64,000 nucleotides of DNA, taken from assembly GCA_028712355.1 (NCBI GenBank), contig JAQTQH010000001.1:9864-73863 (forward strand), in the 5' to 3' direction. The stretch's first letter is position 1; the number at the start of each line of letters is the position of its first letter. Positions 3,607-58,582 of the stretch are shown one piece after another. This stretch comes from Dehalococcoidales bacterium (GTDB lineage: Bacteria > Chloroflexota > Dehalococcoidia > Dehalococcoidales > RBG-16-60-22). Both the position numbers and the translations under genes were made by a program. The notes beneath the pieces are model-generated. The model searched no databases. It was given only the letters and a program-made list of their open reading frames with translations, and was not told where the DNA came from.

Positions 3607-3610
3607 AGAG

Positions 3611-8795: not shown

Positions 8796-12782
<3,987 letters not shown>

Positions 12783-12785
12783 AAT

Positions 12786-16544
<3,759 letters not shown>

Positions 16545-20364: not shown

Positions 20365-21585
20365 ATGGCAGGCATCCTAGAAGGCGTTAAGGTCCTGGAA
20401 ATGGGACACGTGGTGGTCGTGCCCGCTGCCGCGGCGACGATGGGCGACTGGGGCGCGGATGTTCTCAAGCTGGAGCCGCTCACCGGAGACATGGCGCGCG
20501 GTTTCAAGACTATCGAAAAAATACCGCCGATTCTCCGCAGAAACGGAACGGAAATACACTGGTATTTTTCTTATTTGAACCGCAACAAGAGGAGCATCGC
20601 CCTCAACCTCAAATCGCCCGCCGGCCGCGCTGTCTTCGATAAGCTCATCCGGAATTACGATATTTTTATGTCCAATTACCAGGCCTCCTCGCTGGAAAGG
20701 CTCAATATCAACTATGAAACTCTCCGCAAGATCAACCCCCGCCTGATATACTCCATTGTTACAGGGTACGGGTCGAAAGGGCCGGACAAGGACGAGCGCG
20801 GCTTCGACCATACCGCCGCCTGGGCGCGTTCCGGCATTCAGCAGGGAATCGCCGAGCCGGGCATGCCCCCGCCGATGGAACGCGGCGGCATGATGGACCG
20901 CGTTACCGCCGCCCATGAGCTAAGTGGCATCATGGCTGCCCTGTATCACCGGGAAAAAACGGGCAAGGGACAGGCGCTGGAAGTATCGCTATACCATGCT
21001 GCGGTATGGACAGTCTCGGAAGACGTTCAGGCCGCTCTCATGGGCACGCCGCTGCCGCAAAAAGACCGCACCATCGCCGAAAACCCCCTGTTCAACTATT
21101 ACCGCACCAAGGAAGGCCGCTATTTCCAGCTCGCCATGCTGCAATCGGATGTGCAGTGGCCCGGCTTTTGCCGCGCCATAAACCGGCTGGATTTACAGAA
21201 CAACCCCCGCTTCAAGGATATGGACGCCCGCGCCGCCAACTGCCGCGAGTTCATCAAGATACTTGATGATATTTTTATCACAAAAACACGCCCCGAATGG
21301 GAGCAGCTTTTCAAAGCCCATGACTGCATCTACGGGCGGATTGAAACAGCCGCCGAAGTCGCCGGGGACCCCCAGGCAACCGCCAATGATTTCTTCGGGG
21401 AAGTGCCGCATCCGGCAATGGGCCCCATCAAGATGGTGAATACCCCGGTCCGGTTCCGGCAGAATCCTCCTTCCCTGAGGACACCCGCCCCGGAAATCGG
21501 ACAGCACACCGAGGAAGTACTGCTGGAACTCGGCTATGACTGGGAAGACATCGGCAAGCTGAAAGAGCAGGGCGTCATACTTTAA
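20365..21585 (+). CDS. Family III CoA-transferase (CaiB/BaiF type)
   Basis: 406 aa. N-terminal LEGVKVLEMGHVVVVPAAAATMGDWGADVLKLEP motif and an interlocked-dimer family length. TTGACA-17-TAACAT promoter-like site at about 20296-20324. Confidence 0.88.
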   Translation: MAGILEGVKVLEMGHVVVVPAAAATMGDWGADVLKLEPLTGDMARGFKTIEKIPPILRRNGTEIHWYFSYLNRNKRSIALNLKSPAGRAVFDKLIRNYDIFMSNYQASSLERLNINYETLRKINPRLIYSIVTGYGSKGPDKDERGFDHTAAWARSGIQQGIAEPGMPPPMERGGMMDRVTAAHELSGIMAALYHREKTGKGQALEVSLYHAAVWTVSEDVQAALMGTPLPQKDRTIAENPLFNYYRTKEGRYFQLAMLQSDVQWPGFCRAINRLDLQNNPRFKDMDARAANCREFIKILDDIFITKTRPEWEQLFKAHDCIYGRIETAAEVAGDPQATANDFFGEVPHPAMGPIKMVNTPVRFRQNPPSLRTPAPEIGQHTEEVLLELGYDWEDIGKLKEQGVIL

Positions 21586-21610
21586 ACTGGAAATGTTGGC
21601 AAAAGTCGGT

Positions 21611-21683
21611 GTCATTCCCGCGAAAGCGGGAATCCAGCAGCGAAGAAAGGGCGCTGGATTCTCAGGTCAAGACTGAGAATGAC
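21611..21683 (-). repeat. Family A cloverleaf-like structured repeat, copy A1 (best preserved, 73 nt)
   Basis: 7-bp outer stem GTCATTC/GAATGAC enclosing three hairpins: CCGC-GAAA-GCGG; GAATCCAGC-loop-GCTGGATTC; CTCAG-GTCAAGA-CTGAG. There are no unpaired junction nucleotides. Reverse orientation relative to copies A2, A3 and A5. Confidence 0.7.
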
Positions 21684-21692
21684 AATCGGGCT

Positions 21693-24600
21693 TTAAGTCT
21701 TTCGCCCGTTCTCGTTACAAAACTTGACCAACTCGGCGAACTCGTTAATTTTGACCATGTTGCTCGACTCGATGAAGCCGTCGTAGGTCAGGCTAATCCA
21801 GGGCTTCTCGTATGCCGTGCTGAACTTCTCCGCCATCGCCGCCACGATTCCGCCGGGCATGCAGCCGTGCGGCATGACGGAAATCACCCCGGCGAATTCC
21901 GGATTTTCCAGCCAATCGATGCCGCTGCCGATGCTGAGCACCGCCTCGCTGCCGCATCGCGGCGAGAGATATTGCGCTGATTTCGCCAGGATTTCCCCGG
22001 TCGCTGGCTCATGCCCATCCACCACGCCATGGAAATAGCCGGCAATTCCTCCCTCATCACGCTCCTGCACCAGCTTGCGGAGATAGCTCCTGACCGTCTG
22101 AGACAGCCTGCGGTTCTTGACGGCATCTTCCAGATTACGGTAAGAAGTATATCTAATCCACTCGCCCATCGGTGAAACGGCCGCTTCCAGACCAGCCGCT
22201 TCGCACACCCGCACCAGGTCGCGGTTGCTGAAGCGGTTGGAGCGCAGGTAGATTTCCCCATTGATGCCCACCAGCGGACGGCGCGGCAGTTCCTTATCAA
22301 CGAGAGCCATGAAGTCCGCCGGGGCTTTGCGTAAAACACCTCTCAGATTTACCTTATTACTAATAGCGCCGGCAATCTCTTTCAAATATTCGTCAAACAA
22401 TTTATCCGCCGCGCCCTTCTCCTTTTCGTAAGGACGGGTGCGCCAGAGTAGCTTCTGCAGGTAGTCCACAGTAACGATGCCTTTCCAGGCGAGCCGCTCG
22501 AAGCCGGGACCCAGGTTCAGGTCGCGGTAGGCGTTATTGGACACGGTCGTGCGGATGGGCAAATTGAAGCCCACATCCTTAAGCACCCGGATTTGCTCGA
22601 CGGCGTATTTGCCGAGGCGGCACGGCCCGTACGAGCCGCTCATCAAGCCTTCGACATTATCCAGTCCGTCGCCGTTGTGCTCGTGAAAATAGCGCAGGAA
22701 ATCTCCCAGAGTAACACGGTAAGGCAGGCATTCGGTACCGGCGGTATACTGGTTAGCATAAAGCAGGTTGCGTTCATCGGGCTCAGGCAGAACGACCGCC
22801 TTTACGCCATAAGATACCATCGCCGCGGCGACGGCTTCCGCATGGGGCGTCATGCGCGGGATGAGCACGGTCTTCCCGGCGCTGATACTCGTATTCGTAC
22901 CACGGTAAATGTCCCTCCGCGGGGCTTGGACTTCTCCCCGGGCGCGGGCATAGCTGGTGATAGTGTCAACATAGGCTTCCAGTCGTGTGACCAGTCCCGC
23001 CTCGGCGGCATGTTCGTCGATTTCCAGTTGCCCCAGCGGCTTGCTCCCCATGATATCTTCCAGCAGTTTGATAATAAACGAATTGGGACCGCAGCCGAAG
23101 TTGGTCAGCGCCAGGCTGTAGAGCCGAGAGGCATTCGCGCTGATGGCAGCCCCGGCGATGAACTTGCCTTCGTACGACCAGTAGGGACGGTCCGAGTATT
23201 TTTTCGGGTCGATTGAGGCCAGCGGCAGGAAGTCCAGCGGCACCGGCACCACGCCGAGCTGCGCCAGCTTTTCCGCGATGCCCAGGTTCGCCCCGGAGTC
23301 CTGTGACATGTAGGAGCGGGTGAGGAGGACAACACCAAGCTTATCGCTTTCGCGTAATTGCTCGAGGAGCTTTTCGCCCAGCACCGTTCGATCGGCTTCA
23401 AACCTGCGCTGGGCATCTATGCCCGCCGCAGCAGCTTGCCTGCCCGCATCTTTACTGAAGCCCAGCCGCACCGCGATATCCGCCAGGTTTTTGATGACAT
23501 CAGCATCGCCGCGACTGAAATCGATGATGGGAATAAGCAATTTGTCCCCGAGACCGAGCACCTGCCGTACAATGTATGGTGAAGCCTGGATGAGCGGACA
23601 GGCGTATTTCTGGTCTTCTTCACCATCTTTCTTGCCCAGTCGAATCGCGCAGGGGTAGAGAATATAATCGGCGTTTTTCAAAGCGGCGGCGTGCCCGTGT
23701 AGCAGCTTCATGGGGAAACAGCTATCGGTATAAGCCAGCTCGATGGCGTGCTCCATAATTTGCTTGCTGGTCTTACCGGAGAGCGCCACCCTGACTCCCA
23801 GCGCATTCAAAAACCCGATGAGCAGCGGCGCGTAGTCATATACCATCAAGGCGCGCGGGATGCCTACCAGCGGGCCGCTGCCCGTACCTGCATGATAATC
23901 GCGGAAGAGCAGCTTTTCCCGCTCATCGAAGAAGGTCTCCCGCTTCGCCTGGCTGAGCGTGCTGTCGTAGCGGTCGCAGCGGCTGCCGTAAAAAGTCGGC
24001 TTTTCCCCGGGCATTTTCATCTGGGTGATGGCGCAGTTGTTATCGCAGCCCTGGCAGGTAAAGGTGGAAAGATTATAATCCCCTTCGATGACCTTCGTAA
24101 AACCTTTGAACTTTGATTCAGCCCCATTCATCGACTCTTTCGCCAGCAGGGCGGCGCCGATGGCCCCGGAGACTTCGCGGTGTTCCGCTACGGTAAGGGT
24201 TTTACCTTTTAGCTGGTCGCTAAAGGCAGCAACCACCGCCCGGTTATAGAAGACCGCTCCGGTAAGGATAATCCGGTCGCCCAGCTTGCGCGTCCCCACT
24301 ACCTTGGAAAGGTAGTTCTTGGCGATGGAGTTCGCCAGGCTGGCGGTGATGATGGGCAAGGGCACACCCTCCTGCTGGGCGGAGGACACCGCCTGTCCCA
24401 TGAACGCGGCGCAGCGCGTACCCAAATCGATGGTGTGCGGCGCGGTGAACGCAAGCTCGGCGAACTCGCCGCTTTTCACGGAAACGCCGAGCATCTCGGC
24501 AAGCTCATCAATAAAGCTGCCGGTACCGGCGGCGCAGGCTTTATTCATCTGGTAGTCCACAACAACGCCGTTGCGCTTGATGACCAGCTTGGAGTCCTGC

Positions 24601-25826
24601 CCGCCGATTTCAATAATATCCGCTTCCGGGTCGATGTCATAAGCCGCCCGGGTCTGGGCGGTAATCTCGTTCTTAATCAGGTCGGCGCCAATCATGCTGC
24701 CGATGAGATAGCGCCCCGAGCCGGTCACGCCCACGCCGGCGATGGCAACGTTGTCCGCGCCCGCCTGCCGCAGATTGCGGAAGACCTCCTTCACCGCATC
24801 CACAGGGCGTCCCGCCGTCATGAGATAATGCTTGGCGAGAATGGTTTTTCCGGACTCGTCCATGATGACTGCCTTGGTGCTCGTCGAGCCGACATCGACG
24901 CCGAGGTAGCCCCGGAGCGACGCATTGATGGCCAGTTTTGCCCCGTTACTTGGCAGGGAAACTTCCGGCAGCCGGGGCATTTCGAAATAGCGCTGGCGGG
25001 CATCGCCTTCCGGCAACAAATTAACTGCCGAAATCTTATCGCGGGAAAGCAGCGCCGCCCCCAGCGCTTCCATATAGAGATAATTTTGCGGAACAATGAC
25101 TTCGACAGGTTGCCCGTTCCTTGCCGCAAGCACTTCGCTGAGCGCTTTGATAATGGCAGCGTTGGCGGCAACCCCGCCGACGAAATAGACCGGCGGAGGG
25201 AAAGTGCCTTTCTGGAGAGAGGCAACCATGCGGGCGATACTCTCGCACAAGGCGTAGAGCATGGCTGACACCGGAACGCCCTTCTGCTGGAGGTGAATCA
25301 GGTCGCTCTTGGCAAAAACGCTGCAACGGGCGGCGATGCGGGGCGGGGCTCCCTGGCATTTCAACGCCAGACCGGCAAAGTCCTCGATTCCGATGCCGAG
25401 CCGGTAAGCCTGCTGCTCTAAAAATCTGCCCGTGCCGGCGGCGCAGAGGGGATTGGCGGCGACCTTCCACGGCTTCTTCAGTCCGTCTTCCAGCACCACC
25501 GCCAGTGAGCTTTGCCCGCCAATCTGGATAATCGTTTTGGCATCCGCATGATGGTGCAGCAAGCCTGATATTATCGCCAGAGAACTGCTGTACTCCGCCC
25601 AGTGGAACGCCGGCGGAACGGCGCCTTTACCGGAGCCGGAAACGCCGGCGGCGGCAATCTCATCAAGGCGAAATTTTTCACTCAGGCGCTTCAAAAGCGT
25701 ATTTATGGCAATTTTCGGATTACCGGCGATGCGCTGGACACCCAGATGAAGGATTTCACCACCTTCATCAATGAGCGCCAGTTTGACATTCACCGAACCG
25801 ACATCGATTCCGAGATAGCGTTTCAT
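21693..25826 (-). CDS. Fusion protein: two BadF/BadG/BcrA/BcrD-type (HgdC-like) activase ATPase domains plus a dehydratase-related C-terminal region (DUF2229-like)
   Basis: Two ASKHA phosphate-1 motifs (MKRYLGIDVGSVNVK; GYLGVDVGSTSTKAV), a Cys cluster CQGCDNNC...C, and a long C-terminal region. The ORF track starts at 25898, but MKRYLGIDVGS at 25826 fits the family N-terminus. Confidence 0.8.
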   Translation of the reverse strand: MKRYLGIDVGSVNVKLALIDEGGEILHLGVQRIAGNPKIAINTLLKRLSEKFRLDEIAAAGVSGSGKGAVPPAFHWAEYSSSLAIISGLLHHHADAKTIIQIGGQSSLAVVLEDGLKKPWKVAANPLCAAGTGRFLEQQAYRLGIGIEDFAGLALKCQGAPPRIAARCSVFAKSDLIHLQQKGVPVSAMLYALCESIARMVASLQKGTFPPPVYFVGGVAANAAIIKALSEVLAARNGQPVEVIVPQNYLYMEALGAALLSRDKISAVNLLPEGDARQRYFEMPRLPEVSLPSNGAKLAINASLRGYLGVDVGSTSTKAVIMDESGKTILAKHYLMTAGRPVDAVKEVFRNLRQAGADNVAIAGVGVTGSGRYLIGSMIGADLIKNEITAQTRAAYDIDPEADIIEIGGQDSKLVIKRNGVVVDYQMNKACAAGTGSFIDELAEMLGVSVKSGEFAELAFTAPHTIDLGTRCAAFMGQAVSSAQQEGVPLPIITASLANSIAKNYLSKVVGTRKLGDRIILTGAVFYNRAVVAAFSDQLKGKTLTVAEHREVSGAIGAALLAKESMNGAESKFKGFTKVIEGDYNLSTFTCQGCDNNCAITQMKMPGEKPTFYGSRCDRYDSTLSQAKRETFFDEREKLLFRDYHAGTGSGPLVGIPRALMVYDYAPLLIGFLNALGVRVALSGKTSKQIMEHAIELAYTDSCFPMKLLHGHAAALKNADYILYPCAIRLGKKDGEEDQKYACPLIQASPYIVRQVLGLGDKLLIPIIDFSRGDADVIKNLADIAVRLGFSKDAGRQAAAAGIDAQRRFEADRTVLGEKLLEQLRESDKLGVVLLTRSYMSQDSGANLGIAEKLAQLGVVPVPLDFLPLASIDPKKYSDRPYWSYEGKFIAGAAISANASRLYSLALTNFGCGPNSFIIKLLEDIMGSKPLGQLEIDEHAAEAGLVTRLEAYVDTITSYARARGEVQAPRRDIYRGTNTSISAGKTVLIPRMTPHAEAVAAAMVSYGVKAVVLPEPDERNLLYANQYTAGTECLPYRVTLGDFLRYFHEHNGDGLDNVEGLMSGSYGPCRLGKYAVEQIRVLKDVGFNLPIRTTVSNNAYRDLNLGPGFERLAWKGIVTVDYLQKLLWRTRPYEKEKGAADKLFDEYLKEIAGAISNKVNLRGVLRKAPADFMALVDKELPRRPLVGINGEIYLRSNRFSNRDLVRVCEAAGLEAAVSPMGEWIRYTSYRNLEDAVKNRRLSQTVRSYLRKLVQERDEGGIAGYFHGVVDGHEPATGEILAKSAQYLSPRCGSEAVLSIGSGIDWLENPEFAGVISVMPHGCMPGGIVAAMAEKFSTAYEKPWISLTYDGFIESSNMVKINEFAELVKFCNENGRKT

Positions 25827-25893
25827 ATCCAAATCAATTTTAGCAGAGATATGGATTTTACAAAAGTCTGAGGTAATCAGAGTGCTTAAATAT

Positions 25894-25964
25894 GGCATTC
25901 TCGGGCTTGACCCGGGAATCCAGAATGCGTTCGCCCACTGGATTCCCGTTTTCGCAGGAATGAC
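25894..25964 (+). repeat. Family A cloverleaf-like structured repeat, copy A2 (71 nt)
   Basis: GGCATTC-TCGGGCTTGACCCGG-GAATCCAG..CTGGATTC-CCGTTTTCGCAG-GAATGAC. Aligns end to end with the reverse complement of A1. The first hairpin keeps pairing through an A:T to G:C double change. Confidence 0.65.
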
Positions 25965-26044
25965 CGGTTATTACTTGATATTCCTTATTGGCTGCGATAA
26001 GCTGAATCATACAGGGAAAACCAGCGCTACTTACAGGAAAATCA

Positions 26045-27217
26045 ATGAAGCGTATCTACCTTGATTACGCCGCGACGACACCGGTACATCCGGATGTAGT
26101 GAAGGCAATGCGGCCCTTTTTTACCAGGACGTACGGCAACCCTTCCAGTATCCATGCCTGCGGACAGGAGGCAAAGGAAGCGGTTGAGGCCGCCCGTGGC
26201 GAGGTCGCCGGTTTTATCGGCGCGGGCAGCGAGGAAATCGCCTTCACCAGCGGCGGCACCGAGGCGGATAACCTCGCCATCAAGGGCGTGGCTTACGCCA
26301 ACCGTAAAAAGGGCAACCATATTATCACCTGCGCCATCGAGCACCATGCCGTGCTGGAAACCTGCAAATTCTTGGAAGAGACCGGGGTTGCTGTAACTTG
26401 CCTGCCGGTGGACGGCGAAGGCAGGGTCGACCCCGATACTCTTAAGAAAGCGATTACTCCTAAAACGATTCTCATTTCCATCATGCACGCCAATAACGAA
26501 ATCGGCACTATCCAGCCCATTGCCGAAATCGGTAAGATTGCCCGCGCCGCCGGCGTTTATTTCCATACCGATGCGGTACAGACGACGGGACACCTGCGCG
26601 GCGATGTTAACGAGCTGGGAGTCGATTTACTGGCGATGTCGGCGCACAAGCTGTACGGGCCAAAAGGAGTGGGCGCGCTGTACATCCGGAAAGGCACCAG
26701 AATCGCCCCTCTCCTGCACGGGGGCGGACAGGAAAGCGGCATGCGCTCCAGCACGCACAATGTCCCCGGCATTGTCGGGCTGGGGGAAGCGGTACGCATC
26801 GCCCGGCGGGAAATTACCGAGGAAATCCAGCGTCTGACCTTCCTGCGTGACAAACTGATTAAGGGAATCCTGCAGCGCATCGATGACTGCCGCCTTAACG
26901 GCCCGCTCGCTTTCCGCCTGCCCAACAACGCCAACATCAGCATCAGCTATGTCGAGGGAGAGTCGATGTGCCTGAATCTCGACCTCGCCGGGATTTGCGC
27001 TTCCACCGGCTCGGCGTGCAGCTCCGGCAGCCTCGAACCGTCCCACGTCCTGCGGGCACTGGGGCTTCCCGCCGACCTGGCTCACGGCTCGCTGCGCTTC
27101 ACCATGGGCAAATGGACGACCGAAGCGGAAATCGACCGGGTTCTGGAAGTCCTGCCCCGTATCGTGAGCAAGCTCCGCGCCGTGTCTCCCCTTTACCACA
27201 CCCGGAAGCAGAGATAA
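26045..27217 (+). CDS. nifS: Cysteine desulfurase (NifS/IscS class I)
   Basis: 390 aa. PLP-lysine block SAHKLYGPKG, SGGTEADN, catalytic-loop ASTGSACSSG. Confidence 0.92.
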   Translation: MKRIYLDYAATTPVHPDVVKAMRPFFTRTYGNPSSIHACGQEAKEAVEAARGEVAGFIGAGSEEIAFTSGGTEADNLAIKGVAYANRKKGNHIITCAIEHHAVLETCKFLEETGVAVTCLPVDGEGRVDPDTLKKAITPKTILISIMHANNEIGTIQPIAEIGKIARAAGVYFHTDAVQTTGHLRGDVNELGVDLLAMSAHKLYGPKGVGALYIRKGTRIAPLLHGGGQESGMRSSTHNVPGIVGLGEAVRIARREITEEIQRLTFLRDKLIKGILQRIDDCRLNGPLAFRLPNNANISISYVEGESMCLNLDLAGICASTGSACSSGSLEPSHVLRALGLPADLAHGSLRFTMGKWTTEAEIDRVLEVLPRIVSKLRAVSPLYHTRKQR

Positions 27218-27253
27218 GCCGGAAGGGTGTAGTAAGGAACACCATCATTCGCC

Positions 27254-27283
27254 TTGACTTTTATTTAACCCATTCCCTATAAT
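27254..27283 (+). promoter_or_regulatory. Candidate promoter of the tRNA-tuf transcription unit
   Basis: TTGACT-18 nt-TATAAT, 45 nt upstream of the first tRNA. A second weaker TAGACA-18-TATAAT lies at 27527-27556. Confidence 0.5.
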
Positions 27284-27327
27284 ACGAAGGTTAAGCATGA
27301 GTTTGCCAGTATGGCTGGCAAGACAGT

Positions 27328-27400
27328 GCCCGAGTAGCGCAATGGCAGCGCAACCGACTTGTAATCGGTAGGTTGACGGGTTCGACTCCCTCCTCGGGCT
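27328..27400 (+). tRNA. tRNA-Thr (anticodon TGT)
   Basis: Hand fold: acceptor GCCCGAG/CTCGGGC, D stem GCGC/GCGC, anticodon stem ACCGA/TCGGT with loop CTTGTAA, T loop TTCGACT. The T stem needs one bulged C or two mismatches. Confidence 0.85.
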
Positions 27401-27415
27401 GGGGATAGGTACTGG

Positions 27416-27502
27416 GGAGGGATGCCGGAGCGGCCAATCGGAGCAGACTGTAAATCTGCCGCCCTAAGGGCTACGCAGGTTCGAATCCTGCTCCCTCCAC
27501 CA
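27416..27502 (+). tRNA. tRNA-Tyr (anticodon GTA), class II with long variable arm, CCA encoded
   Basis: Acceptor GGAGGGA/TCCCTCC, anticodon stem GCAGA/TCTGC with loop CTGTAAA, variable arm GCCC-TAA-GGGC, T arm GCAGG-TTCGAAT-CCTGC, 3' ACCA. Confidence 0.93.
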
Positions 27503-27567
27503 TATGAATGTGGGAGCAAGCTCCTCTAGACAACAAATAATAAATATCTGTATAATAGAAACAATGT

Positions 27568-27640
27568 GCCCACATAGCTCAGTAGGTAGAGCACGCCCTT
27601 GGTAAGGGCGGGGTCATCAGTTCGAATCTGATTGTGGGCT
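27568..27640 (+). tRNA. tRNA-Thr (anticodon GGT)
   Basis: Canonical cloverleaf: GCCCACA/TGTGGGC, GCTC/GAGC, CGCCC-TTGGTAA-GGGCG, ATCAG-TTCGAAT-CTGAT. Confidence 0.95.
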
Positions 27641-27661
27641 CGGAAATAAACGGAGGAAGAT

Positions 27662-28870
27662 ATGGCTAAGCAGAAATTTGACAGGACGAAACCACACGTA
27701 AACGTCGGCACCATCGGTCACGTCGACCACGGCAAAACTACTCTCACCTCGGCAATCACGCTGGTGCTATCGAAGCAGGCTGGCGTCGGGACGCAATTCA
27801 AAGCCTTCGAATCGATTGATGCCGCCCCGGAAGAGAAAGCCCGCGGCATGACCATCGCTATCGCCCACGTGGAATACGAGACCGCCAAGCGGCACTACGC
27901 CCATGTCGACTGCCCCGGCCATGCCGACTTTATTAAGAACATGATTACCGGCGCCGCCCAGATGGATGGCGCTATCCTCGTGGTCAGTGCCCCGGACGGC
28001 CCGATGCCCCAGACCCGGGAGCACGTCCTGCTGGCACGCCAGGTGCAGGTGCCCTACATCGTCGTCGCCCTGAACAAGGTAGATTTGATGGAAGACGAAG
28101 AACTCCTTGAACTCGTCGAAGTCGAAGTGCGGGAACTGCTTTCTAAATACGAATTCCCCGGTGATAAGACACCGGTCGTCCGCGTTAGCGCCGTCAAAGC
28201 CCTGGAATGCGGCTGCGGCAAGAGAGAATGCAAGTGGTGCGGCGCTATCCTCAAGCTGATGGATGCCGTAGATGATTTCATCCCCATTCCGCCTCGTCCG
28301 AAGGACAAGCCGTTCCTGATGTCCATCGAAGACGTATTCAGTATCAAGGGCCGCGGCACCGTGCCCACCGGCAGGGTAGAGCGCGGTACGGTCAAAGGCG
28401 GCGACGAAGTTGAAATCGTTGGTCTGCATCATGAGGCACGCAAGGTGGTGGTCACCAGCCTGGAAATGTTCCACAAGATTCTGGACACCGCCGAGCCCGG
28501 CGATGCGGTCGGCTTGCTCCTCCGCGGCGTAGAGCGCGAAGATATCGAGCGCGGTCAGGTGCTGGCAGCTCCCGGCTCCATCAAACCGCACACCTATGCC
28601 GAAGCCGAGGTCTACGTCCTGAGCAAAGACGAGGGCGGCCGCCATACCCCGTTCTTCAACGGCTACAAGCCGCAGTTCTACATCCGCACGACGGATGTTA
28701 CCGGCAGCATTGAGCTCCCCGAAGGCGTCGAGATGGTCATGCCCGGCGACCATATCAAAATGAAAATTAAATTGATTTACCCGGTAGCCCTGGAACCCGG
28801 TCTGCGCTTCGCTATACGCGAGGGCGGCAGGACGGTCGGCGCGGGCGGCATCATCAAGATAATAGAGTAG
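27662..28870 (+). CDS. tuf: Elongation factor Tu
   Basis: 402 aa. [18 protein letters not shown]. Carries an unusual [11 protein letters not shown] insertion at aa 183-193. Confidence 0.98.
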
Positions 28871-28876
28871 AGGTTT

Positions 28877-29044
28877 ATGGCAAAGAAAACGGACGCAAGA
28901 GGTGTTATCTACCTTGCCTGCACCGAGTGCAAGGAGAGAAACTATACTACATCAAAGAACCGGAAAAACGATTCGCAGCGCATGGAGCTGACGAAGTACT
29001 GTCCCCGTTGCCGCGCGCATAAGCCGCACAAGGAGACCAAATAG
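28877..29044 (+). CDS. rpmG: 50S ribosomal protein L33 (Zn-ribbon C+ form), absent from the ORF track
   Basis: Own translation, 55 aa: [55 protein letters not shown]. Canonical tuf-rpmG-secE position. Confidence 0.9.
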
Positions 29045-29077
29045 CCCTGTTGCCTTCGGGCGCGGGACGTCTATAAC

Positions 29078-29299
29078 ATGAAAGTTAATTCTGCGGTCAG
29101 GCACAGCCCCGGTGCAAGATTAATCCGGTACTTTATCGGCATCGTTGACGAGCTTAAAAAAGTGGTCTGGCTCAGCCGGCGGGAGGTTATTTATCTCACC
29201 ACCCTGGTCTTGCTCGTGGCCGGCATCGCCGGCCTGGTGCTGGGCGCGCTGGACTACGGCTTTACTGCTCTGATTGACAAGCTTATCCTGGGCAGATAA
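29078..29299 (+). CDS. secE: Preprotein translocase subunit SecE
   Basis: 73 aa. Amphipathic helix (DELKKVVWLSRREV) followed by a single TM. Position between rpmG and nusG. Confidence 0.85.
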   Translation: MKVNSAVRHSPGARLIRYFIGIVDELKKVVWLSRREVIYLTTLVLLVAGIAGLVLGALDYGFTALIDKLILGR

Positions 29300-29343
29300 T
29301 GGACTCCTGTGAATAGTCAATTATCTGCCCCGTAGCTTTTACC

Positions 29344-29907
29344 ATGGGAGAGACATTGGGAGAGAGGTTATCTGTGGCGGTCGACGAAAAACAGTGGTTT
29401 GTCATCCATACTTACTCCGGGCATGAAGACCGGGTCAAGAAAAACCTGGAGCAGCGTATCAAGTACATGGACTCCGGCAATGCAATCTACCAGGTGGTGA
29501 TACCCACCGAGGAAGAAATTGAAGTCAAGAGCGGGCGGCGCCGCACGGTCACCCGCAAGACCCTGCCCGGATACGTCCTCGTCCAGATGAAAATGACGGA
29601 CCAGACCTGGACTCTGGTACGCAACACGCCCGGCGTCACCGGCTTCGTCGGCAGCACGGGCAAACCCACGCCGCTGGATGAAAAGGGCGTCAATGACATT
29701 CTTAAACAGATGAGCGCCGAAGCTCCCCGCGTGAAAGTGGGCTTCCGCAGAGGACAGAGCGTGCGCGTCATTGACGGGCCGTTCATCGATTTTGTCGGAG
29801 TGGTTGACGAGATAAATATGGAAAAGGGCAAGGTCAAAGTGCTCCTGTCCCTGTTCGGGCAGGAAACACCGGTGGAGCTGGATTTACTCCAGATTGAAAA
29901 GCTCTAG
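29344..29907 (+). CDS. nusG: Transcription termination/antitermination factor NusG
   Basis: 187 aa. NGN domain (WFVIHTYSGHEDRVK) and KOW motif (GQSVRVIDGPFIDFVGVV). Confidence 0.95.
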   Translation: MGETLGERLSVAVDEKQWFVIHTYSGHEDRVKKNLEQRIKYMDSGNAIYQVVIPTEEEIEVKSGRRRTVTRKTLPGYVLVQMKMTDQTWTLVRNTPGVTGFVGSTGKPTPLDEKGVNDILKQMSAEAPRVKVGFRRGQSVRVIDGPFIDFVGVVDEINMEKGKVKVLLSLFGQETPVELDLLQIEKL

Positions 29908-29927
29908 CCCCCCCCTGAGGAGATAAC

Positions 29928-30350
29928 ATGGCAAAAAAGGTCAAGACAATCATCAAATTACAGATTCCCGCCGGACAGGCAAACCCGGCGCCCCCGGTCG
30001 GTCCCGCACTGGGCCAGCACGGTATCAACATCATGGCTTTCTGCAAGGACTACAATGAGCGCACCGCTTCCCAGGCTGGCTCGGTTATCCCGGTAGAAAT
30101 CACCGTCTACGAGGACCGGTCATTCACTTTCGTCACGAAGACACCGCCCGCCGCCGACCTGCTGAAGAAAGCCCTGGGACTGGAGAAAGGCTCCGGTACA
30201 GCGGGGCATGACGTCGCCGCTACGCTTTCCCGCGAAAAGCTGCGGGAAATCGCCAAAGCCAAAGTGAAAGACCTCAACGCCAACAGCATCGAAGCTGCGG
30301 AACGCCTGATTGAAGGCTCCGCCCGAAGTATGGGGATTAAGGTAGAATAA
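29928..30350 (+). CDS. rplK: 50S ribosomal protein L11
   Basis: 140 aa. [31 protein letters not shown] hallmark. Confidence 0.97.
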
Positions 30351-30351
30351 G

Positions 30352-31065
30352 ATGGCAGAACACGGAAAGAAATATCAGGAAACCGCTAAACTCATCGAAC
30401 CCAGTAAGGCTTACGGACCACAGGAAGCCGTTGAGCTGGTTAAAAAGACAACGCATACTAAATTTGACGAGACTATCGAGTTGCACCTGCGCATGGGGCT
30501 CGACCCGCGGGACGCCACCCAGCAGGTGAGAGGAGTCGCCATCCTGCCCGGCGGACTGGGCAAGCAGGTGCGTGTCCTCGTCTTTGCGCAGGGCGAAGCG
30601 GAGCGGACTGCTAAAGAAGCCGGCGCGGATATCGTCGGTAATGATGATATTATCAAGCAGATTGAGGGGGGCTGGCTGGAGTTCGATGTTGCCATCGCCA
30701 CTCCGGAAATGATGGGCAAAGTAGGCAGGCTGGGTAAAATCCTGGGCCGCAAGGGGCTCATGCCCAATCCCAAGGCGGGCACGGTGGTTGCCGATGATGA
30801 CCTGCCCCGCGTTATTGGCGATTCCCGCAAGGGACGCGTTGAGTACAAACTGGACCGCACCGCCATTATCCATGTGCCGGTGGGCAAAGCCAGCTTCGCG
30901 CCGGATGCGCTGCTGGCGAACCTGACCGCCATCATAGAGGCGGTCGTCAAGGCCAAGCCGGCGGGCGCCAAGGGACAGTACGTGAAGAGTGCCTACATCA
31001 AAACCACCATGGGGCCGAGCATTAAGCTCGACCTTTCCAGTACTCTCACTTTGACCGCCGCCTAA
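30352..31065 (+). CDS. rplA: 50S ribosomal protein L1
   Basis: 237 aa. FDETIELHLRMGLDPR and GLMPNPKAGTV blocks. Starts 1 nt after rplK. Confidence 0.97.
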   Translation: MAEHGKKYQETAKLIEPSKAYGPQEAVELVKKTTHTKFDETIELHLRMGLDPRDATQQVRGVAILPGGLGKQVRVLVFAQGEAERTAKEAGADIVGNDDIIKQIEGGWLEFDVAIATPEMMGKVGRLGKILGRKGLMPNPKAGTVVADDDLPRVIGDSRKGRVEYKLDRTAIIHVPVGKASFAPDALLANLTAIIEAVVKAKPAGAKGQYVKSAYIKTTMGPSIKLDLSSTLTLTAA

Positions 31066-31256
31066 TACTGATTGCGTTTTACTGATATATTGTGCTAAGA
31101 TAAATTTAAATTGAATATAGTATCCTAAGACAGCGGGTGCCGCTCGCGGCTTAATGAGTCTGCCTGCCGAGGAATCAAGAAATCGATAGATTTGAGAGTC
31201 CTTGTGCATGGCGCAGGGACTTTCTTTTTTGAGCGTCACTTCAGGAGGATGAAAAA
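31066..31256 (+). promoter_or_regulatory. rplJ leader: promoter-like site plus terminator-like attenuator hairpin (candidate L10 leader)
   Basis: TTGCGT-18-TAAGAT at 31072-31101. An 11-bp stem AGTCCTTGTGC/GCGCAGGGACT at 31197-31221 is followed by TTTCTTTTTT and ends 27 nt before the rplJ ATG. Confidence 0.5.
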
Positions 31257-31790
31257 ATGCCACGGGAACACAAGGCGAAGGTTATCGAAGAGCTCCAGGA
31301 AGCGTTCGGGAAAGCCAGCATCGGCGTGATTACCGATTACCGCGGCATCCCCACCCCCGAACTTAATATCCTGCGCAAAAAACTGCGGGAAGCCGGCATC
31401 AGCCTCAAAGTGGTCAAGAACACCCTCGCGGAAATCGCCGCCAAAAATGCGGGACGGGAAGACCTCACAAAGTCCTTTGCCGGACCAGCGGCGGTCGTCC
31501 TCGGGTACGACGATGTCTCCCATCCTGCCAAAATCCTCACCGAGCACATCCGCAGCACCAAGTCCGCCCTTAAAATCAAGAGCGGCTTCCTCAAGGGCAA
31601 TCTGCTCACCGAGCAGGACATCCAGACCCTGGCGACCCTGCCTTCCCGAGAAGTGCTCATCAGCCAGGTGCTCGCCGGGATGCAGAGCCCCATCGCTATT
31701 TTCATCACTTATCTCGCCAGCCCTTTGAGCGGATTAGTCAACGTGCTGGAAGGCCACCGCAAGCAACTGGAGGCCGCGCCCAAAGCATAA
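31257..31790 (+). CDS. rplJ: 50S ribosomal protein L10
   Basis: 177 aa. Position and sequence (DYRGIPTPELNILRKKLRE). Confidence 0.96.
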   Translation: MPREHKAKVIEELQEAFGKASIGVITDYRGIPTPELNILRKKLREAGISLKVVKNTLAEIAAKNAGREDLTKSFAGPAAVVLGYDDVSHPAKILTEHIRSTKSALKIKSGFLKGNLLTEQDIQTLATLPSREVLISQVLAGMQSPIAIFITYLASPLSGLVNVLEGHRKQLEAAPKA

Positions 31791-31862
31791 GGAAACTCGT
31801 GCTGACACACGGTCGGCATTTATTAAATATCAGACAAATATAATCGGAGGACGGAGAAACAA

Positions 31863-32243
31863 ATGACTACTGAAGAAATCATGAATGCCATCAAGGGTAT
31901 GAACGTTCTGGAACTGGCGGAGCTGGTTAAAACCCTGCAGACCGAATTCGGCGTCACTGCCGCCGCACCGGTCGTCGCCGCCGCACCGGCTGGTGGAGCT
32001 GCCGCTGGAGCCGCCCCCGCTGCTGAAGAAAAGACCGAGTTCACCGTCATCCTCAAGGAAATCGGCGCGAACAAGATTAACGTCATCAAGGCGGTCCGCG
32101 AGCTCACCAACCTCGGCTTGAAAGAGTCTAAGGACCTGGTTGAAGGCGCTCCCAAGCCAGTCAAGGAGAACGTGAGCAAGGAAGAAGCCAACACGGCGAA
32201 GACCAAGCTGGAAGCAGCCGGCGCTACTGTCGAAGTAAAGTAG
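31863..32243 (+). CDS. rplL: 50S ribosomal protein L7/L12
   Basis: 126 aa. Ala/Pro hinge and C-terminal domain ([24 protein letters not shown]). Confidence 0.97.
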
Positions 32244-32252
32244 CAAAACATA

Positions 32253-32316
32253 GTCATTGCAAGGAGTCACGGCAAAGAAGCAATGCCGGCCGCGTTAAAG
32301 GATTGCTTAGATTGTG
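32253..32316 (+). repeat. Family B repeat, 5' part (GTCATTGCAAGGAG ... AAGCAATG/GATTGCTT hairpin)
   Basis: Begins 10 nt after the rplL stop. The 3' terminus is degenerate. Confidence 0.45.
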
Positions 32317-32340
32317 GCTCATATACCCGGGGCTAATGTG

Positions 32341-32373
32341 GAGGGGCGTACAATACGCCCCTCTTCAGGTTTT
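32341..32373 (+). terminator. Intrinsic terminator of the ribosomal protein operon
   Basis: GAGGGGCGTA-CAA-TACGCCCCTC (10-bp stem) followed by TTCAGGTTTT. Confidence 0.6.
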
Positions 32374-32406
32374 CCCTGCTACCAAAAAGCTCCCTTACGG
32401 TATATT

Positions 32407-32479
32407 ATCATCCTCAAGCTTGCCCCGAAAATCCAGAATCCCCCCTCCCCTGCTGGATCCCCGCTTACGCAGGAATGAC
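32407..32479 (+). repeat. Family A cloverleaf-like repeat, copy A3 (degenerate, 73 nt)
   Basis: ATCATCC-TCAAGCTTGCCCCGA-AAATCCAG..CTGGAT-CCCCGCTTACGCAGG-AATGAC. Collinear with A2 but with mismatches in the outer stem and first hairpin. Confidence 0.5.
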
Positions 32480-32542
32480 ATTTACTCAACCTCTAACCTG
32501 CCCTTGCACTAAACTAAGACGGCAGGCTATAATTTCCCTAGC

Positions 32543-33070
32543 ATGGATAACCGGAAACTTAAAGTTCTGCTTTCCCATGATGAGATATCCGCTGTCACAG
32601 GGAAGCTGACAGCGGATATCACCAGGGACTACCACGATAAAAATCCCCTGCTTATCGGCGTGCTCAAGGGCGCTTTTATTTTCATGGCGGATTTGGTACG
32701 CCGGCTCGATTTCCCGCTGGAGCTGGAGTTCGTCCGCCTCGCCAGCTACTCCGGTACCGAGACCACCGGACGATTGAAAATGCCGCAGGCTCTCACCACC
32801 CCCATCAAAGGCAAAGATGTGCTCGTTATCGAAGATATCGTGGATACCGGGCTGACTACTGCCTTCATCATGAGATATCTGCGCCGCAAGTCACCGGCAT
32901 CGCTCAAGCTGTGCGCATTGCTCAATAAACCCGCCCGCCGCCGCGTCCCTCTTGATATCGATTACCTCGGCTGCAACGTACCCGACCAGTTCCTCGTCGG
33001 CTACGGACTGGACTGCGACCAGCAGTACCGCAACCTGCCGGATATCTGCATACTGGAGGAAAAACCGTGA
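32543..33070 (+). CDS. hpt: Hypoxanthine(-guanine) phosphoribosyltransferase
   Basis: 175 aa. PRPP loop VLVIEDIVDTGLT and C-terminal VGYGLD motif. Confidence 0.93.
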   Translation: MDNRKLKVLLSHDEISAVTGKLTADITRDYHDKNPLLIGVLKGAFIFMADLVRRLDFPLELEFVRLASYSGTETTGRLKMPQALTTPIKGKDVLVIEDIVDTGLTTAFIMRYLRRKSPASLKLCALLNKPARRRVPLDIDYLGCNVPDQFLVGYGLDCDQQYRNLPDICILEEKP

Positions 33071-34773
33071 GCACGAAACTCGCCCGGTTGATTGCGGTCG
33101 CCCGCGGCGACCAGCCCGCCGACCTTATTTTGGCGAATGCCCGGATTATCAATACCTTCAACGGCGATATTGAAAGGGGTAATGTTGCCATCAGCGGCGA
33201 CCGCATCGCCGGCATCAGCGATTACCGCCAGGCGAAGCAAATCATCGACCTCGAGGACAAATTTCTTTCACCGGGCTTGATTAACGGACACACCCACCTG
33301 GAAAGCTCGCTGCTGGATGTGGGGCAGTATGCCCGCGCCGTCGTGCCGCACGGCACCTCCGCAATAGTGACTGACCTCCACGAGATTGCCAATGTCAGCG
33401 GTCTGGCAGGCATGAAATACGTGCTGGACTGCGCCCGCCGCTTGCCCCTGGATTTGTTTTTAATGGCGCCCTCCTGCGTCCCCGCCACCCACCTGGAGAC
33501 TGCCGGCGCCGCGATTACCCCCGAAGATATCCGCCGCATCCTGCGCTGGCATAACTGCATCGGACTGGGGGAGGTGATGAACTTCCCCGGCGTACTCGGC
33601 GCGGATGCTCCAGTATTAAGCAAGATTACCGCTACCACCGGAAAATCAGTGGACGGCCACGCCCCCGGGCTGAGCGGGAAAAACCTGAACGCCTACCTCG
33701 CCGCGGGAATCGGCTCCGACCACGAGTCGGTCAACTTTGCCGAAGCGGAGGAAAAACTCCGGCGCGGCATGTTCATCATGATTCGTGAAGGCTCCTCGGA
33801 AAAGAACCTGGACACCCTGTTGCCACTGGTCACCGATAAGACCTACCCGCGCTGTCTTTTCGTGGTGGACGACCGATCCTGCGCCGACCTCCTGCGCGAT
33901 GGCGACATCGATGCCGTGGTGCGCAAGGCTATCCGCCGCGGCCTGGAGCCGGTGCGCGCTCTCCAGCTTGCCACCATCAACCCCGCCCGCTACTTCCGCC
34001 TGGATGGACTGGGCGCCGTCGCCCCGGGATATTTCGCCAATCTGGTAGTTTTCGCTGATTTGAAAGACTTAACGGTTAGTTCCGTCTATTATCGCGGCAA
34101 GCTGGTGGCGCATGATGGACGTCCCCTATTTGAAGCTTACCGGTGCGAAACAGGTAAGCTCACCCGCACCGTGAAGATAAAACCTTTCACCGCCGAGAAC
34201 CTCAGGATAAAGCCGCTGGGGGAAAGCCAGCCGGTTATCGAGGTTGTCCCCGGGCAAATCATCACCAGGATGCGGCAGGAAAAGGTCAAGGTAGTCAACG
34301 GGACGGTGATACCAGATACCAACCGCGACCTGCTGAAGCTGGTGGTGATAGAAAGACATCACGCTACCGGCAACATCGGCGCGGCGCTCGTAACCGGCTT
34401 CGGCTTGCAGCGGGGCGCCCTGGCGACATCTATCGCACACGATTCCCACAATATCGTAGCAGTGGGAACGACTGACGAAGACATTATTGCCGCCATCAAA
34501 GAAATAGAAAGACACCGGGGCGGGCTGGCGGTGGCGGCGGGGGGCAAGGTGCTGGCCAGCCTGGGGTTGCCCATCGCCGGGTTGCTCTCTGATGAGCCGC
34601 TGGAGCAGGTCGCCGGTAAGATGGACCGTATAGAGCATCTCGCAAAAGAACTGGGCGCAAAACTGCCCGCGCCCTTCGCCGCGCTCTCGTTTTTAGCGCT
34701 GCCGGTTATCCCGGAGTTGCGCCTGACCGACCAGGGTCTCGTCGATGTCAACCAATTCCGCATTATCTCGTAA
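33067..34773 (+). CDS. ade: Adenine deaminase
   Basis: 568 aa amidohydrolase. GLINGHTHLESS metal motif and the Ade-family C-terminal domain. 4-nt overlap with hpt. Confidence 0.9.
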   Translation: MSTKLARLIAVARGDQPADLILANARIINTFNGDIERGNVAISGDRIAGISDYRQAKQIIDLEDKFLSPGLINGHTHLESSLLDVGQYARAVVPHGTSAIVTDLHEIANVSGLAGMKYVLDCARRLPLDLFLMAPSCVPATHLETAGAAITPEDIRRILRWHNCIGLGEVMNFPGVLGADAPVLSKITATTGKSVDGHAPGLSGKNLNAYLAAGIGSDHESVNFAEAEEKLRRGMFIMIREGSSEKNLDTLLPLVTDKTYPRCLFVVDDRSCADLLRDGDIDAVVRKAIRRGLEPVRALQLATINPARYFRLDGLGAVAPGYFANLVVFADLKDLTVSSVYYRGKLVAHDGRPLFEAYRCETGKLTRTVKIKPFTAENLRIKPLGESQPVIEVVPGQIITRMRQEKVKVVNGTVIPDTNRDLLKLVVIERHHATGNIGAALVTGFGLQRGALATSIAHDSHNIVAVGTTDEDIIAAIKEIERHRGGLAVAAGGKVLASLGLPIAGLLSDEPLEQVAGKMDRIEHLAKELGAKLPAPFAALSFLALPVIPELRLTDQGLVDVNQFRIIS

Positions 34774-34791
34774 ACCAGAGAGGAGAACTAC

Positions 34792-35493
34792 TTGAGGCAT
34801 ACTACTAAAGAACCGGCTTTCGAAAATCGCTATGATGCCGGGCATAAGCTTGCCGCCAAGCTGGCGGCATACAAGGGCAGAACATGCGTGGTCATGGCCA
34901 TCCCCAACGGCGGCGCGCCGGTGGCGCTGGGCGTCGCCCTGGCGCTCGATGCCGATTTCGACCTGGTCATTTCCCGCAAGATTCCCCTGCCCCTCAGTCC
35001 GGAGGGCGGCTTCGGCGCGGTCACCGATGACGGCACCACCATCCTCAACGATGCCGTCGTCAAGCAGGCCGGACTGACCCCGCAGCAGATTAATTACCAG
35101 GTGAGCCAGGTGCGGGCGAACATCCGCCAGCGCAGCCTGCTCTATCACCAAGAGCGCCCGCCCGCCATCACCAGCGATAAGACAATCATCATCGTGGATG
35201 ACGGCATGGCTTCCGGCTACACCATGATGGCTGCGGTCGAATCCTTACGCCACCGCCGCCCACGCGAGATTGTGGTGGCGGTACCGGTAGCCCACGAAAA
35301 GACAGTCAAAGAGGTGGCAAAGCGAGCGGATAAAGTCGTGGCTTGCGTGGTGGACTCATCTCAAAAGTTTTATCTCGCCGATTTTTACCGGTTCTGGAAT
35401 GAGCCGAGCGATAAGGAAGTCCTCCAGTGTCTCAAGGAGTGGCGCATCCGCCGCCAGCCGGTCATCGACCTGACCATCAAGGGCAGACAATAA
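34792..35493 (+). CDS. Type I phosphoribosyltransferase-family protein (unknown substrate)
   Basis: 233 aa. PRPP-binding IIIVDDGMASGYT. TTG start 6 nt after GAGAGGAGA. Confidence 0.75.
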   Translation: MRHTTKEPAFENRYDAGHKLAAKLAAYKGRTCVVMAIPNGGAPVALGVALALDADFDLVISRKIPLPLSPEGGFGAVTDDGTTILNDAVVKQAGLTPQQINYQVSQVRANIRQRSLLYHQERPPAITSDKTIIIVDDGMASGYTMMAAVESLRHRRPREIVVAVPVAHEKTVKEVAKRADKVVACVVDSSQKFYLADFYRFWNEPSDKEVLQCLKEWRIRRQPVIDLTIKGRQ

Positions 35494-35494
35494 T

Positions 35495-35563
35495 GTCATT
35501 GCGAGCGAGGCAGTCTCGAGGGGGGAAGGAGATTGCTTCGTCGTTTTGAACCCTCGCAATGAT
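35495..35563 (+). repeat. Family B structured repeat, copy B2 (complete, 69 nt)
   Basis: GTCATTGCGAG...CTCGCAATGAT outer inverted termini and an inner GCAGTCTC/GAGATTGC hairpin. Starts 2 nt after the stop codon. Confidence 0.65.
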
Positions 35564-35630
35564 ACGGTAACTTCCCTAGATTGCCCCCTCGTGATATACT
35601 AACTCTATCTGCCGGAGGGTGGAGGGATAT

Positions 35631-36143
35631 ATGCCCCGTAAATTGAAGACAGACCCGCAAATCCTGGAAATGCCCGCCCAGAAAATGGCGGTGGTCTACG
35701 GCAAAGGCGCTCCGGATAAAGTCTTCCCCGTGGTCTTTCCGGCGCTCTATGGCGCAGTCTATACGCTCAAGTTTGACCTTAAAAAGAGAGGACTGCCTAC
35801 CTTCAAGGTCGGGCCGCTCCGTTCCCGCTACCCGGATGCGCACCTCGTGCCGATGAACGAGTGGACGATTGTGACCGGTTTGCCCATTCCCGCCGATACC
35901 GAGTCGCTGCCCCAGAAAATCGGCAGTCCGGATGTGCGGATTGAAGAGTGGGCATACGGTACGGTGGCGCAAATCCTGCACCTCGGGGCATACGACCAGG
36001 AGCAGGAATCCATCGAGAAGCTGCACCGATTCATCCAGGAAAACGGTTACGAACTCGCCGGCGCGCACGAGGAGGAGTACCTCACCACGCAAGACGCCAA
36101 GGTAATTAAGACGGTTATCAGATACCGGATTAAGAAGAAGTAA
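35631..36143 (+). CDS. GyrI-like small-molecule-binding domain protein
   Basis: 170 aa from ATG 35631 (GGAGGG RBS); the ORF track gives GTG 35619. The pattern of duplicated beta-alpha-beta-beta modules is typical of the GyrI-like/SOUL fold. Motif-level call. Confidence 0.6.
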   Translation: MPRKLKTDPQILEMPAQKMAVVYGKGAPDKVFPVVFPALYGAVYTLKFDLKKRGLPTFKVGPLRSRYPDAHLVPMNEWTIVTGLPIPADTESLPQKIGSPDVRIEEWAYGTVAQILHLGAYDQEQESIEKLHRFIQENGYELAGAHEEEYLTTQDAKVIKTVIRYRIKKK

Positions 36144-36195
36144 TTGGGCGTTTTGCCCCCTTTGAAAAAAGGAAAACAAGAAGGGTTTTCACCTC

Positions 36196-36227
36196 GCCTT
36201 CCGGATTCCCGCTTTCGCGGGAATGAC
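36196..36227 (+). repeat. Family A repeat, 3' fragment (copy A4)
   Basis: CCGGATTCCCGCTTTCGCGGGAATGAC matches the right end of the reverse complement of A1 with one change. The left part is not recognisable. Confidence 0.45.
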
Positions 36228-36251
36228 ACATTACTTTAAGGATACCTATCT

Positions 36252-39212: not shown

Positions 39213-39256
39213 TCTGAAAGGGAAGCCCGAAGGGGCTCTGCCCCTTCGGAAAAATA

Positions 39257-58550: not shown

Positions 58551-58582
58551 TTTAATCATTAAAACTCAGATTCAATACAAAT

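Follow-up and report, generated by a model that had tools for sequence, protein, structure and literature searches.

Repeat copies in the window

The window, by which we mean the whole 64-kb stretch of Dehalococcoidales DNA analyzed here, contains four full copies and one partial copy of a ~73-nt interspersed repeat, set between genes that include those for a CoA-transferase, a 1401-aa acyl-CoA dehydratase/activase-like protein, NifS, and the ribosomal protein RplL (Table 1). The best relatives of the 1401-aa protein (≤74% identity) are encoded in Dehalococcoidia/Chloroflexota MAGs. Copy A1 reads on the plus strand at 21611–21683 exactly as given in the initial annotation, and the collinear copies that it listed at 25894–25964, 32407–32479, and 58583–58651 are all present on the minus strand, with the partial one ending at 36227. 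A covariance-model scan of the whole window with filters off recovered the four full copies together with the partial copy at 36154–36228, and no further copies were found by this unfiltered scan at E < 0.01. The 25-mer GTCATTCCCGCGAAAGCGGGAATCC likewise has four matches in the window at ≤3 mismatches, compared with 0.00 expected (none in 100 shuffles). All five copies are intergenic, as had been stated.

Table 1. Coordinates of the repeat copies in the window and of their component parts
Feature	Position	Strand	Description and neighboring genes
A1	21610–21684	+	Full head-to-head doublet, TGTC...GACA; covariance model 83.6 bits; flanked by two converging genes, one for a CoA-transferase (end at 21585) and the other the 1401-aa acyl-CoA dehydratase/activase-like gene (end at 21693)
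A1 unit 1	21610–21637	+	TGTC tag, stem ATTCCCGC, loop GAAA, stem GCGGGAAT, CCAG tail; assigned to NTS / CGTC-1 REP
A1 spacer	21638–21653	+	CAGCGAAGAAAGGGCG; differs among copies; purine-rich on the unit-1 strand
A1 unit 2	21654–21684	−	TGTC, ATTCTCAG(T), CTTGA, (C)CTGAGAAT, CCAG; 9-bp stem and 5-nt loop, classed as NTSvar-like
A2	25893–25965	−	Full doublet; 69.7 bits; unit 1 at 25938–25964 (−), unit 2 at 25894–25923 (+); divergently flanked, by the start of the 1401-aa gene and by nifS
A3	32406–32480	−	Full, partly decayed doublet in the rplL/hpt interval; 68.7 bits
A5 (partial)	36154–36228	−	One NTS unit (36201–36228) and a spacer remnant, without unit 2; 32.4 bits; 24 nt upstream of an etfA-like gene
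A4	58582–58652	−	Full doublet; 62.6 bits; between convergent CoA-transferase and propionate/acetate-CoA ligase genes
Unit fragment GTCATTCTC	58665–58673	+	9 nt, 13 nt from A4; identical to the start of unit 2; direct reading

The 9-nt fragment beside A4 may be the remnant of another unit or a chance match. The initial annotation had also pointed to spurious ORFs generated by the repeat, and MSFPRKRES... does begin at a GTG at 21609. Repeat units yield such ORFs recurrently (MSFPRKRES..., VIPAKAGIQ...), and they are worth masking in the annotation of environmental genomes; a literature search for these peptide strings found no paper.

Two further observations concern the surroundings of the repeats. 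The rpoB and rpoC genes (8796–16544, minus strand) lie ~15 kb from rplK-rplA-rplJ-rplL (29344–32480), which are on the opposite strand, and the usual rplL-to-rpoB order is broken. Copy A3 occupies the exact spot where rpoB normally follows rplL, possibly the breakpoint of a rearrangement that took place at a repeat. Elsewhere, at ~39255–39300 of the window and at L207:1320–1400 of a syntenic relative, the same intergenic region contains another palindromic repeat, CCTTCCCTTCCC...GGGAAGGGGTCAGGGG.

Anatomy and folding of the element

The element is an imperfect palindrome in which two inverted units of ~27–30 nt flank a variable G-rich spacer. Each unit comprises a 5′ YGTC tag, an 8–9-bp stem beginning with AT, a 4–5-nt loop, and a CCAG tail; the consensus of unit 2 is ATTCTCGGG / CTTGA / CCCGAGAAT, followed by CCAG. 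Of the 62 rows aligned, 61 have CGTC or TGTC as the tag and one (L261) has AGTC. Among the four window rows, A2 has GGTC, and the tags of A1, A3, A4, and the partial copy A5 are TGTC. A head-to-head arrangement, with the tags pointing outward, is seen in all four full copies of the window and in 57 distinct copies from metagenomes. In these hybrid doublets the spacer measures 10–24 nt, and its unit-1 strand contains 57% G and 4% C; within this strand-asymmetric segment (alignment columns 29–52; window positions 21638–21653 and 32437–32452), GGAGG is often present.

As RNA, A1 folds with a free energy of −35 kcal/mol (z = −5.7; 0 of 200 shuffles as good), and the folds of A2–A4 are weaker (z = −0.3 to −3.3). 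The initial annotation had described A1 as a tight cloverleaf closed by a 7-bp outer stem; in the minimum-energy structure this stem has 5 bp. The A1 junction has five branch-migration isomers within 1.4 kcal/mol when RNA parameters are used and within 1.2 kcal/mol with DNA parameters, and the minimum-energy DNA fold consists of three separate hairpins from which the outer stem is absent. Because each unit is a palindrome, such that ATTC...GAAT occurs four times, each ATTC and GAAT segment is able to pair either within its unit or between units. The lack of unpaired bases at the junction likewise arises because an inverted unit is itself palindromic, and it therefore does not indicate that a four-way junction has been selected for.

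Conserved base pairing lies within the units

Compensatory changes between A1 and A2 (A:T to G:C and T:A to T:G) had been taken as evidence that the hairpins are maintained. The changes are correct by direct reading, and maintenance of hairpins through compensatory change is borne out within units; unit 1 of A4, for instance, carries ATCC/GGAT, a change compensated inside the unit. We scanned IMG/VR with a search pattern that left stem positions 2–4 and their partners free and obtained 138 units in distinct contexts, 98 of them canonical and 40 non-canonical. Full Watson-Crick compensation was found in 29 of the 40 non-canonical units, which represent six types (TCC/GGA, CCC/GGG, CTC/GAG, TGC/GCA, TGG/CCA, and TAC/GTA).

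Head-to-head dimers allow the two pairing models to be compared directly. In 23 mixed dimers, defined as those whose partners are unlike in the outer four stem pairs, 177 of 184 in-unit pairs are Watson-Crick, versus 111 of 184 between-unit pairs, among which there are 44 mismatches. Scoring of 43 dimers at the eight pairs that discriminate between the models gave 35 doubly compensated cells and 3 unpaired cells for the within-unit model, as against 4 doubly compensated and 37 unpaired cells for the cloverleaf. Selection of the dimer set required a hairpin in each unit, which inflates the percentage of in-unit pairing but not the lack of between-unit covariation; the 138-unit test with free stem positions is without this selection bias. 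The tail pairing CCAG/CTGG also covaries, but it is common to both models and so does not discriminate between them. RNAalifold covariation across 61 hybrid copies is approximately zero (−0.11), and covariation within the hybrid family is uninformative because the copies are too uniform. The conserved structure is the hairpin of each unit and not the cloverleaf, which had been proposed as the selected fold: in dimers the cloverleaf-specific pairs lack conservation, and the junction can branch-migrate.

Membership in a described repeat family

By its sequence, the ~73-nt element is a head-to-head pair of palindromic repeats that have been described as CGTC-tagged REPs, as dRS3/NTS, and as SRMs. 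In the survey by Di Nocera et al. (2013, PMC3733652), CGTC-tagged REPs have a CGTC or TGTC (or CCTC) tag, 8–9-bp stems starting from AT, 4–5-nt loops, and a CCA tail; the CGTC-1 family has an 8-bp stem and a 4-nt loop, occurs predominantly as head-to-head dimers, and includes the dRS3 repeat of Neisseria. Unit 1 fits the CGTC-1 definition in its stem, its loop, the AT at its start, and its CCA tail; unit 2 would belong to either CGTC-3 or CGTC-4. A more recent study (Nat Commun 2025, PMC11893778) defines the 28-nt NTS CGTCATTCCCGCGMAVGCGGGAATCYRG, which contains dRS3, together with a variant motif, NTSvar, whose stem is 9 bp and whose loop is 5 nt. In the NTS, the C that follows the palindrome is critical for binding (PMC11893778), and a C is present directly after the palindrome in unit 1.

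Unit 1 of A1 and the A5 unit each match the NTS consensus with one mismatch, which in A1 unit 1 lies at the first base (T in place of C). The same two units match the published SRM expression (2 hits versus 0.41 expected in the window), and consensus unit 2, checked by hand, fits it as well. The other seven of the nine window units fail the strict expression through point substitutions, so some of the window copies are possibly decaying relics. On these sequence features we assign unit 1 to the NTS that contains dRS3, that is, to the CGTC-1 REPs, and we class unit 2, with its 9-bp stem and 5-nt loop, as NTSvar-like.

The suggestion in the initial annotation that this is a REP-like interspersed repeat agrees well with the YGTC tag, the AT-start stem, the CCAG tail, and the head-to-head dimers. 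Its remark that no Rfam family is known also holds, as nothing relevant appears either at the gathering threshold or at a permissive E-value. Its view that the element has no assigned function is outdated, since the unit corresponds to dRS3/NTS, to a CGTC-tagged REP (PMC3733652), and to the target of the ssDNA nuclease SsnA (PMC11893778). Because the element matches a described repeat family that has a known role, it cannot be regarded as novel.

Distribution and insertion contexts

The repeat had been said to be widespread in environmental bacteria, and we find the hybrid doublet in many metagenome contigs, at no fewer than 57 distinct insertion sites. Scanning metagenomes with the inner halves of the two units as anchors returned 92 stretches, about three quarters of which contain a complete hybrid doublet; the full copies scored lie in 57 distinct flank contexts, and their unit sequences are nearly invariant. 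The exact 25-mer is also found in Neisseria, Azospirillum, and Sphingopyxis records and in at least 95 stretches of IMG/VR (pro)phage contigs, where it occurs singly, paired, or as Neisseria arrays. In several of the IMG/VR loci, which include L010, L023, L032, and L037, the 25-mer stands directly 5′ of a gene start, identical across contigs.

Among 80 related Dehalococcoidia loci (957 kb), the repeat is present in one locus only (L159), versus five copies in 64 kb here. The L207 contig and several other contigs with doublets are syntenic with the window at ~70% nucleotide identity. In one shared intergenic region, L207 has a doublet and the window is empty; in another, L207 has a full doublet where the window has A5, a single unit in the opposite orientation. 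Because the closest relatives are only ~70% identical, which leaves ends and target duplications undefinable, presence or absence was all that was scored at shared intergenic regions.

Hybrid doublets often have conserved flanks of the TGTTTARYAAT type just 5′ of the tags. Across the doublet loci L178–L269 (for example L196:248–386, L221:2094–2232, and L262:455–590), many copies have GAGAGTGTTTAGCAATAGTTTGGT upstream and ATTATTAAACAATCTC downstream; in the window these flanks are weak, at 25862–25893 and 32480–32511. The upstream and downstream sequences together make an imperfect inverted repeat outside the doublet, and a conserved TTTAATAAT lies on the bottom strand just 5′ of the unit-2 tag, at the predicted cut site of the Ssn nuclease considered below. 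At L180:5041–5072 and in L187, L213, L225, L230, and L265, a third direct unit, GTCATTCCAGCGAAAGCTGGAATCCAG, and a 12-nt C-rich linker, AACTTCCACGCT, precede the doublet and produce trimers. Unit-2 variants with an expanded loop, TCAAGCCTTCAGGCTGAATCAGGCTGAAG, occur in L189, L195, L229, L257, and L269. Insertion of IS elements into unit loops was considered and rejected, as the apparent insertions are loop expansions of 18–23 nt.

Association of the repeat with ssn genes

SsnA is a 94-aa single-domain GIY-YIG nuclease that binds and cleaves the NTS (PMC11893778). Ssn is orientation-specific and cuts only ssDNA, leaving dsDNA and RNA intact, and the cut falls a few bases 5′ of the tag; cleavage specificity has been published for four homologs, from Neisseria and three further species (PMC11893778). 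The same study reports that ssn genes are flanked by SRMs across phyla and that in Neisseria the action of Ssn reduces transforming-DNA integration, and it puts forward Ssn-driven mobility of the repeats as a hypothesis (PMC11893778).

No ssn gene is present in the 64-kb window. In other contigs (L020, L185, L062, and the N. gonorrhoeae locus L304), we found ssn genes flanked by the motif. In the viral locus L020, a 97-aa GIY-YIG gene (PF01541, E = 2.6e−15) lies between inverted NTS units with their tags outward, and in the metagenome contig L185, a 95-aa GIY-YIG gene (E = 3e−16) lies between inverted unit-2-type repeats, with a hybrid doublet ~100 nt upstream of the gene. The N. gonorrhoeae homolog, which has NTS units on its flanks (L304), is 52% identical to the L185 protein. 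The latter has more than 7,900 homologs at E ≤ 1e−10 and is labeled Patescibacteria by NCBI, so that the doublet occurs in unrelated phyla; the sole ssn gene adjoining a hybrid doublet is this one, labeled Patescibacteria, and none of the Ssn homologs seen here comes from a Dehalococcoidia contig. The doublet has the geometry of the SRM-ssn-SRM gene unit, with the tags facing outward. Its G-rich spacer may be what is left of an ssn 5′ leader.

Discussion

We think it probable that the doublets provide an Ssn-type nuclease with hairpin sites on ssDNA and have spread as gene-less miniatures of the SRM-ssn-SRM unit. When a strand becomes single-stranded, each unit would fold as its own hairpin, to which an Ssn of ~95 aa with a GIY-YIG domain would bind, nicking the ssDNA 5′ of the tag. 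Because the units are inverted, each strand would present a single forward site, the top strand that of unit 1 and the bottom strand that of unit 2. Cuts are thus predicted at both outer edges, and whichever its polarity, the ssDNA would receive a nick just outside the element. The doublet would then spread in trans as a gene-less miniature, a reading suggested by the geometry that it shares with the SRM-ssn-SRM unit. A cognate Ssn that cuts these copies is predicted to be encoded by this Dehalococcoidia genome, and it is plausible that Ssn, rather than another enzyme, is the disperser. A stronger version of this proposal, in which the doublet is a currently active miniature of SRM-ssn-SRM that is moved via ssDNA by the GIY-YIG nuclease and is spreading horizontally between unrelated sediment and groundwater phyla (Dehalococcoidia and Patescibacteria), seems doubtful to us at present.

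An alternative source of mobility is the RAYT family of HUH/Y1 tyrosine transposases, which copy REP doublets in trans as REPINs, as in Pseudomonas and E. coli. The doublets described here share the REPIN architecture of an inverted REP pair with a short spacer, hairpin units, and a 5′ tag. In the reading of Bertels and Rainey, the repeat ATTCCCGCGCAGGCGGGAATC of Neisseria is a REPIN linked to NMAA_0235, a Group 2 RAYT, and they observed that it decays where the RAYT gene is frameshifted; in N. gonorrhoeae, moreover, a CGTC-1 doublet lies ~135 nt upstream of the RAYT gene. The CGTC survey, however, found CGTC units at the flanks of neither a RAYT gene nor any other transposase gene, whatever the species (Di Nocera et al., PMC3733652), and the N. 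gonorrhoeae RAYT gene is immediately flanked not by CGTC units but by GTAG-tagged REPs (GTAGGTCGGAT...), as is a RAYT gene of Chloroflexota (flanks inspected at L096:1370–1500 and 1990–2020 and at L303:2890–2970 and 3560–3930, from N. gonorrhoeae and a Chloroflexota plasmid). This arrangement shows that the GTAG and CGTC repeat super-families coexist with separate protein partners. Searches by tblastn with seven RAYT/TIRYT seeds detected no RAYT in the window, in the viral loci, or beside the hybrid doublets, and gave weak hits only in L153, a locus from a Dehalococcoidia relative in which no repeat unit was detected. We therefore consider dispersal by a RAYT improbable. A passive role, in which IS110-family or phage integrases would use the hairpins as landing sites in the way that filamentous prophages of Neisseria use dRS3, merits hardly any credence as a separate explanation. 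It would accord with the report that dRS3 is a phage recombinase target (PMC11893778) and with the exact 25-mer, which in IMG/VR is frequent on (pro)phage contigs and in some cases lies at the end of the contig, but it leaves near-identical doublets at 57 or more sites unexplained. Neither an integrase nor an IS lies beside the window copies, and what look like insertions into unit loops are short expansions rather than IS elements. A landing-site function is in any case compatible with the Ssn explanation rather than an alternative to it.

The remaining possibility is that the element acts as a structured RNA, whether a cloverleaf tRNA mimic or an mRNA 3′-end stabilizer or terminator, with its RNA fold under selection. 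The strength of the A1 fold speaks for such a role, as does the placement of two of the five window copies (A1 and A4) between convergent genes, 9–87 nt from the stop codons, and E. coli REPs are reported to affect 3′UTR stability. The cloverleaf, however, is not conserved in its specific pairs and is one of five junction isomers of near-equal energy, its DNA counterpart folds as three hairpins, RNAalifold detects no appreciable covariation in the hybrid copies, and SsnA is inactive on RNA (PMC11893778). Copy A2 lies in a divergent promoter region. Around the doublets we counted 18 sense, 16 antisense, 8 convergent, and 7 divergent contexts, from crude gene calls that mis-assign some neighbors, and there is no orientation bias in the 34 unidirectional ones. 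This lack of strand bias, together with the absence of a T-run 3′ of any copy, leaves the terminator idea of the initial annotation weak; no terminator-like site was called at A1, A2, A3, or A5 (21000–37000 scanned), and terminator and promoter calls at the elements do not exceed chance. Its tRNA-mimic idea finds no backing from ARAGORN, which calls no copy and only three true tRNAs, or from Rfam, which gives no match. A primary RNA role is unlikely, and we regard selection on the RNA fold as a very improbable explanation; any RNA-level effect of the stable hairpins on adjoining transcripts would be secondary.

Under the Ssn explanation, the presence of a near-identical Neisseria-type NTS/dRS3 repeat in a Dehalococcoidia genome and in a Patescibacteria contig would point to a wider host range for the Ssn-SRM system. 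What is new here is the Dehalococcoidia host, the fixed pairing of an NTS with an NTSvar-like unit around a G-rich spacer, and the conserved outer flanks. The doublet offers a simple system for asking whether a GIY-YIG ssDNA nuclease disperses repeats, a question about the disperser that dates from 2013, the year in which CGTC REPs were reported to have no transposase of their own. Were the doublet indeed an active miniature, its transposition would be driven by a nuclease class not known to mobilize bacterial MITEs.

Among known repeat systems, the CGTC-tagged REPs of Di Nocera et al. share with the element the tag, stem length, AT start, loop length, and CCA tail, as well as an intergenic location, spurious small ORFs, and dimers that in some cases lie inside longer palindromes (PMC3733652). 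Spacers of head-to-head dimers are variable in both, at 20–100 nt in the survey versus 10–24 nt here. The hosts listed in that survey belong to five phyla that do not include Chloroflexi, whereas the present host is one of the Dehalococcoidia, and the survey describes no dimer that joins two CGTC families, reporting hybrids only for GTAG repeats (PMC3733652). Relative to the NTS/SRM study, the element differs in being a fixed hybrid pair (an NTS with an NTSvar-like unit) with a G-rich spacer, where the main text of that study does not use the word "dimer", and in its host, Dehalococcoidia (Chloroflexota), which the main text does not mention (PMC11893778). The dRS3/NIME repeats of Neisseria resemble it in that the hairpin fits ATTCCC-N8-GGGAAT and an identical 27-mer occurs in N. 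gonorrhoeae; unlike the isolated doublets with short G-rich spacers seen here, they are mostly found in large arrays whose RS spacers measure ~57 nt. REPIN-RAYT systems and E. coli BIMEs, like the present element, consist of inverted doublets of hairpin units with a 5′ tag and are non-autonomous and intergenic, and the E. coli BIMEs also share with it the use of unlike partners, in their case the Y and Z REPs. The REPIN-RAYT systems combine a GTAG tag with an HUH tyrosine transposase, whereas the repeat described here combines a CGTC tag with a putative GIY-YIG nuclease partner and has no associated RAYT.
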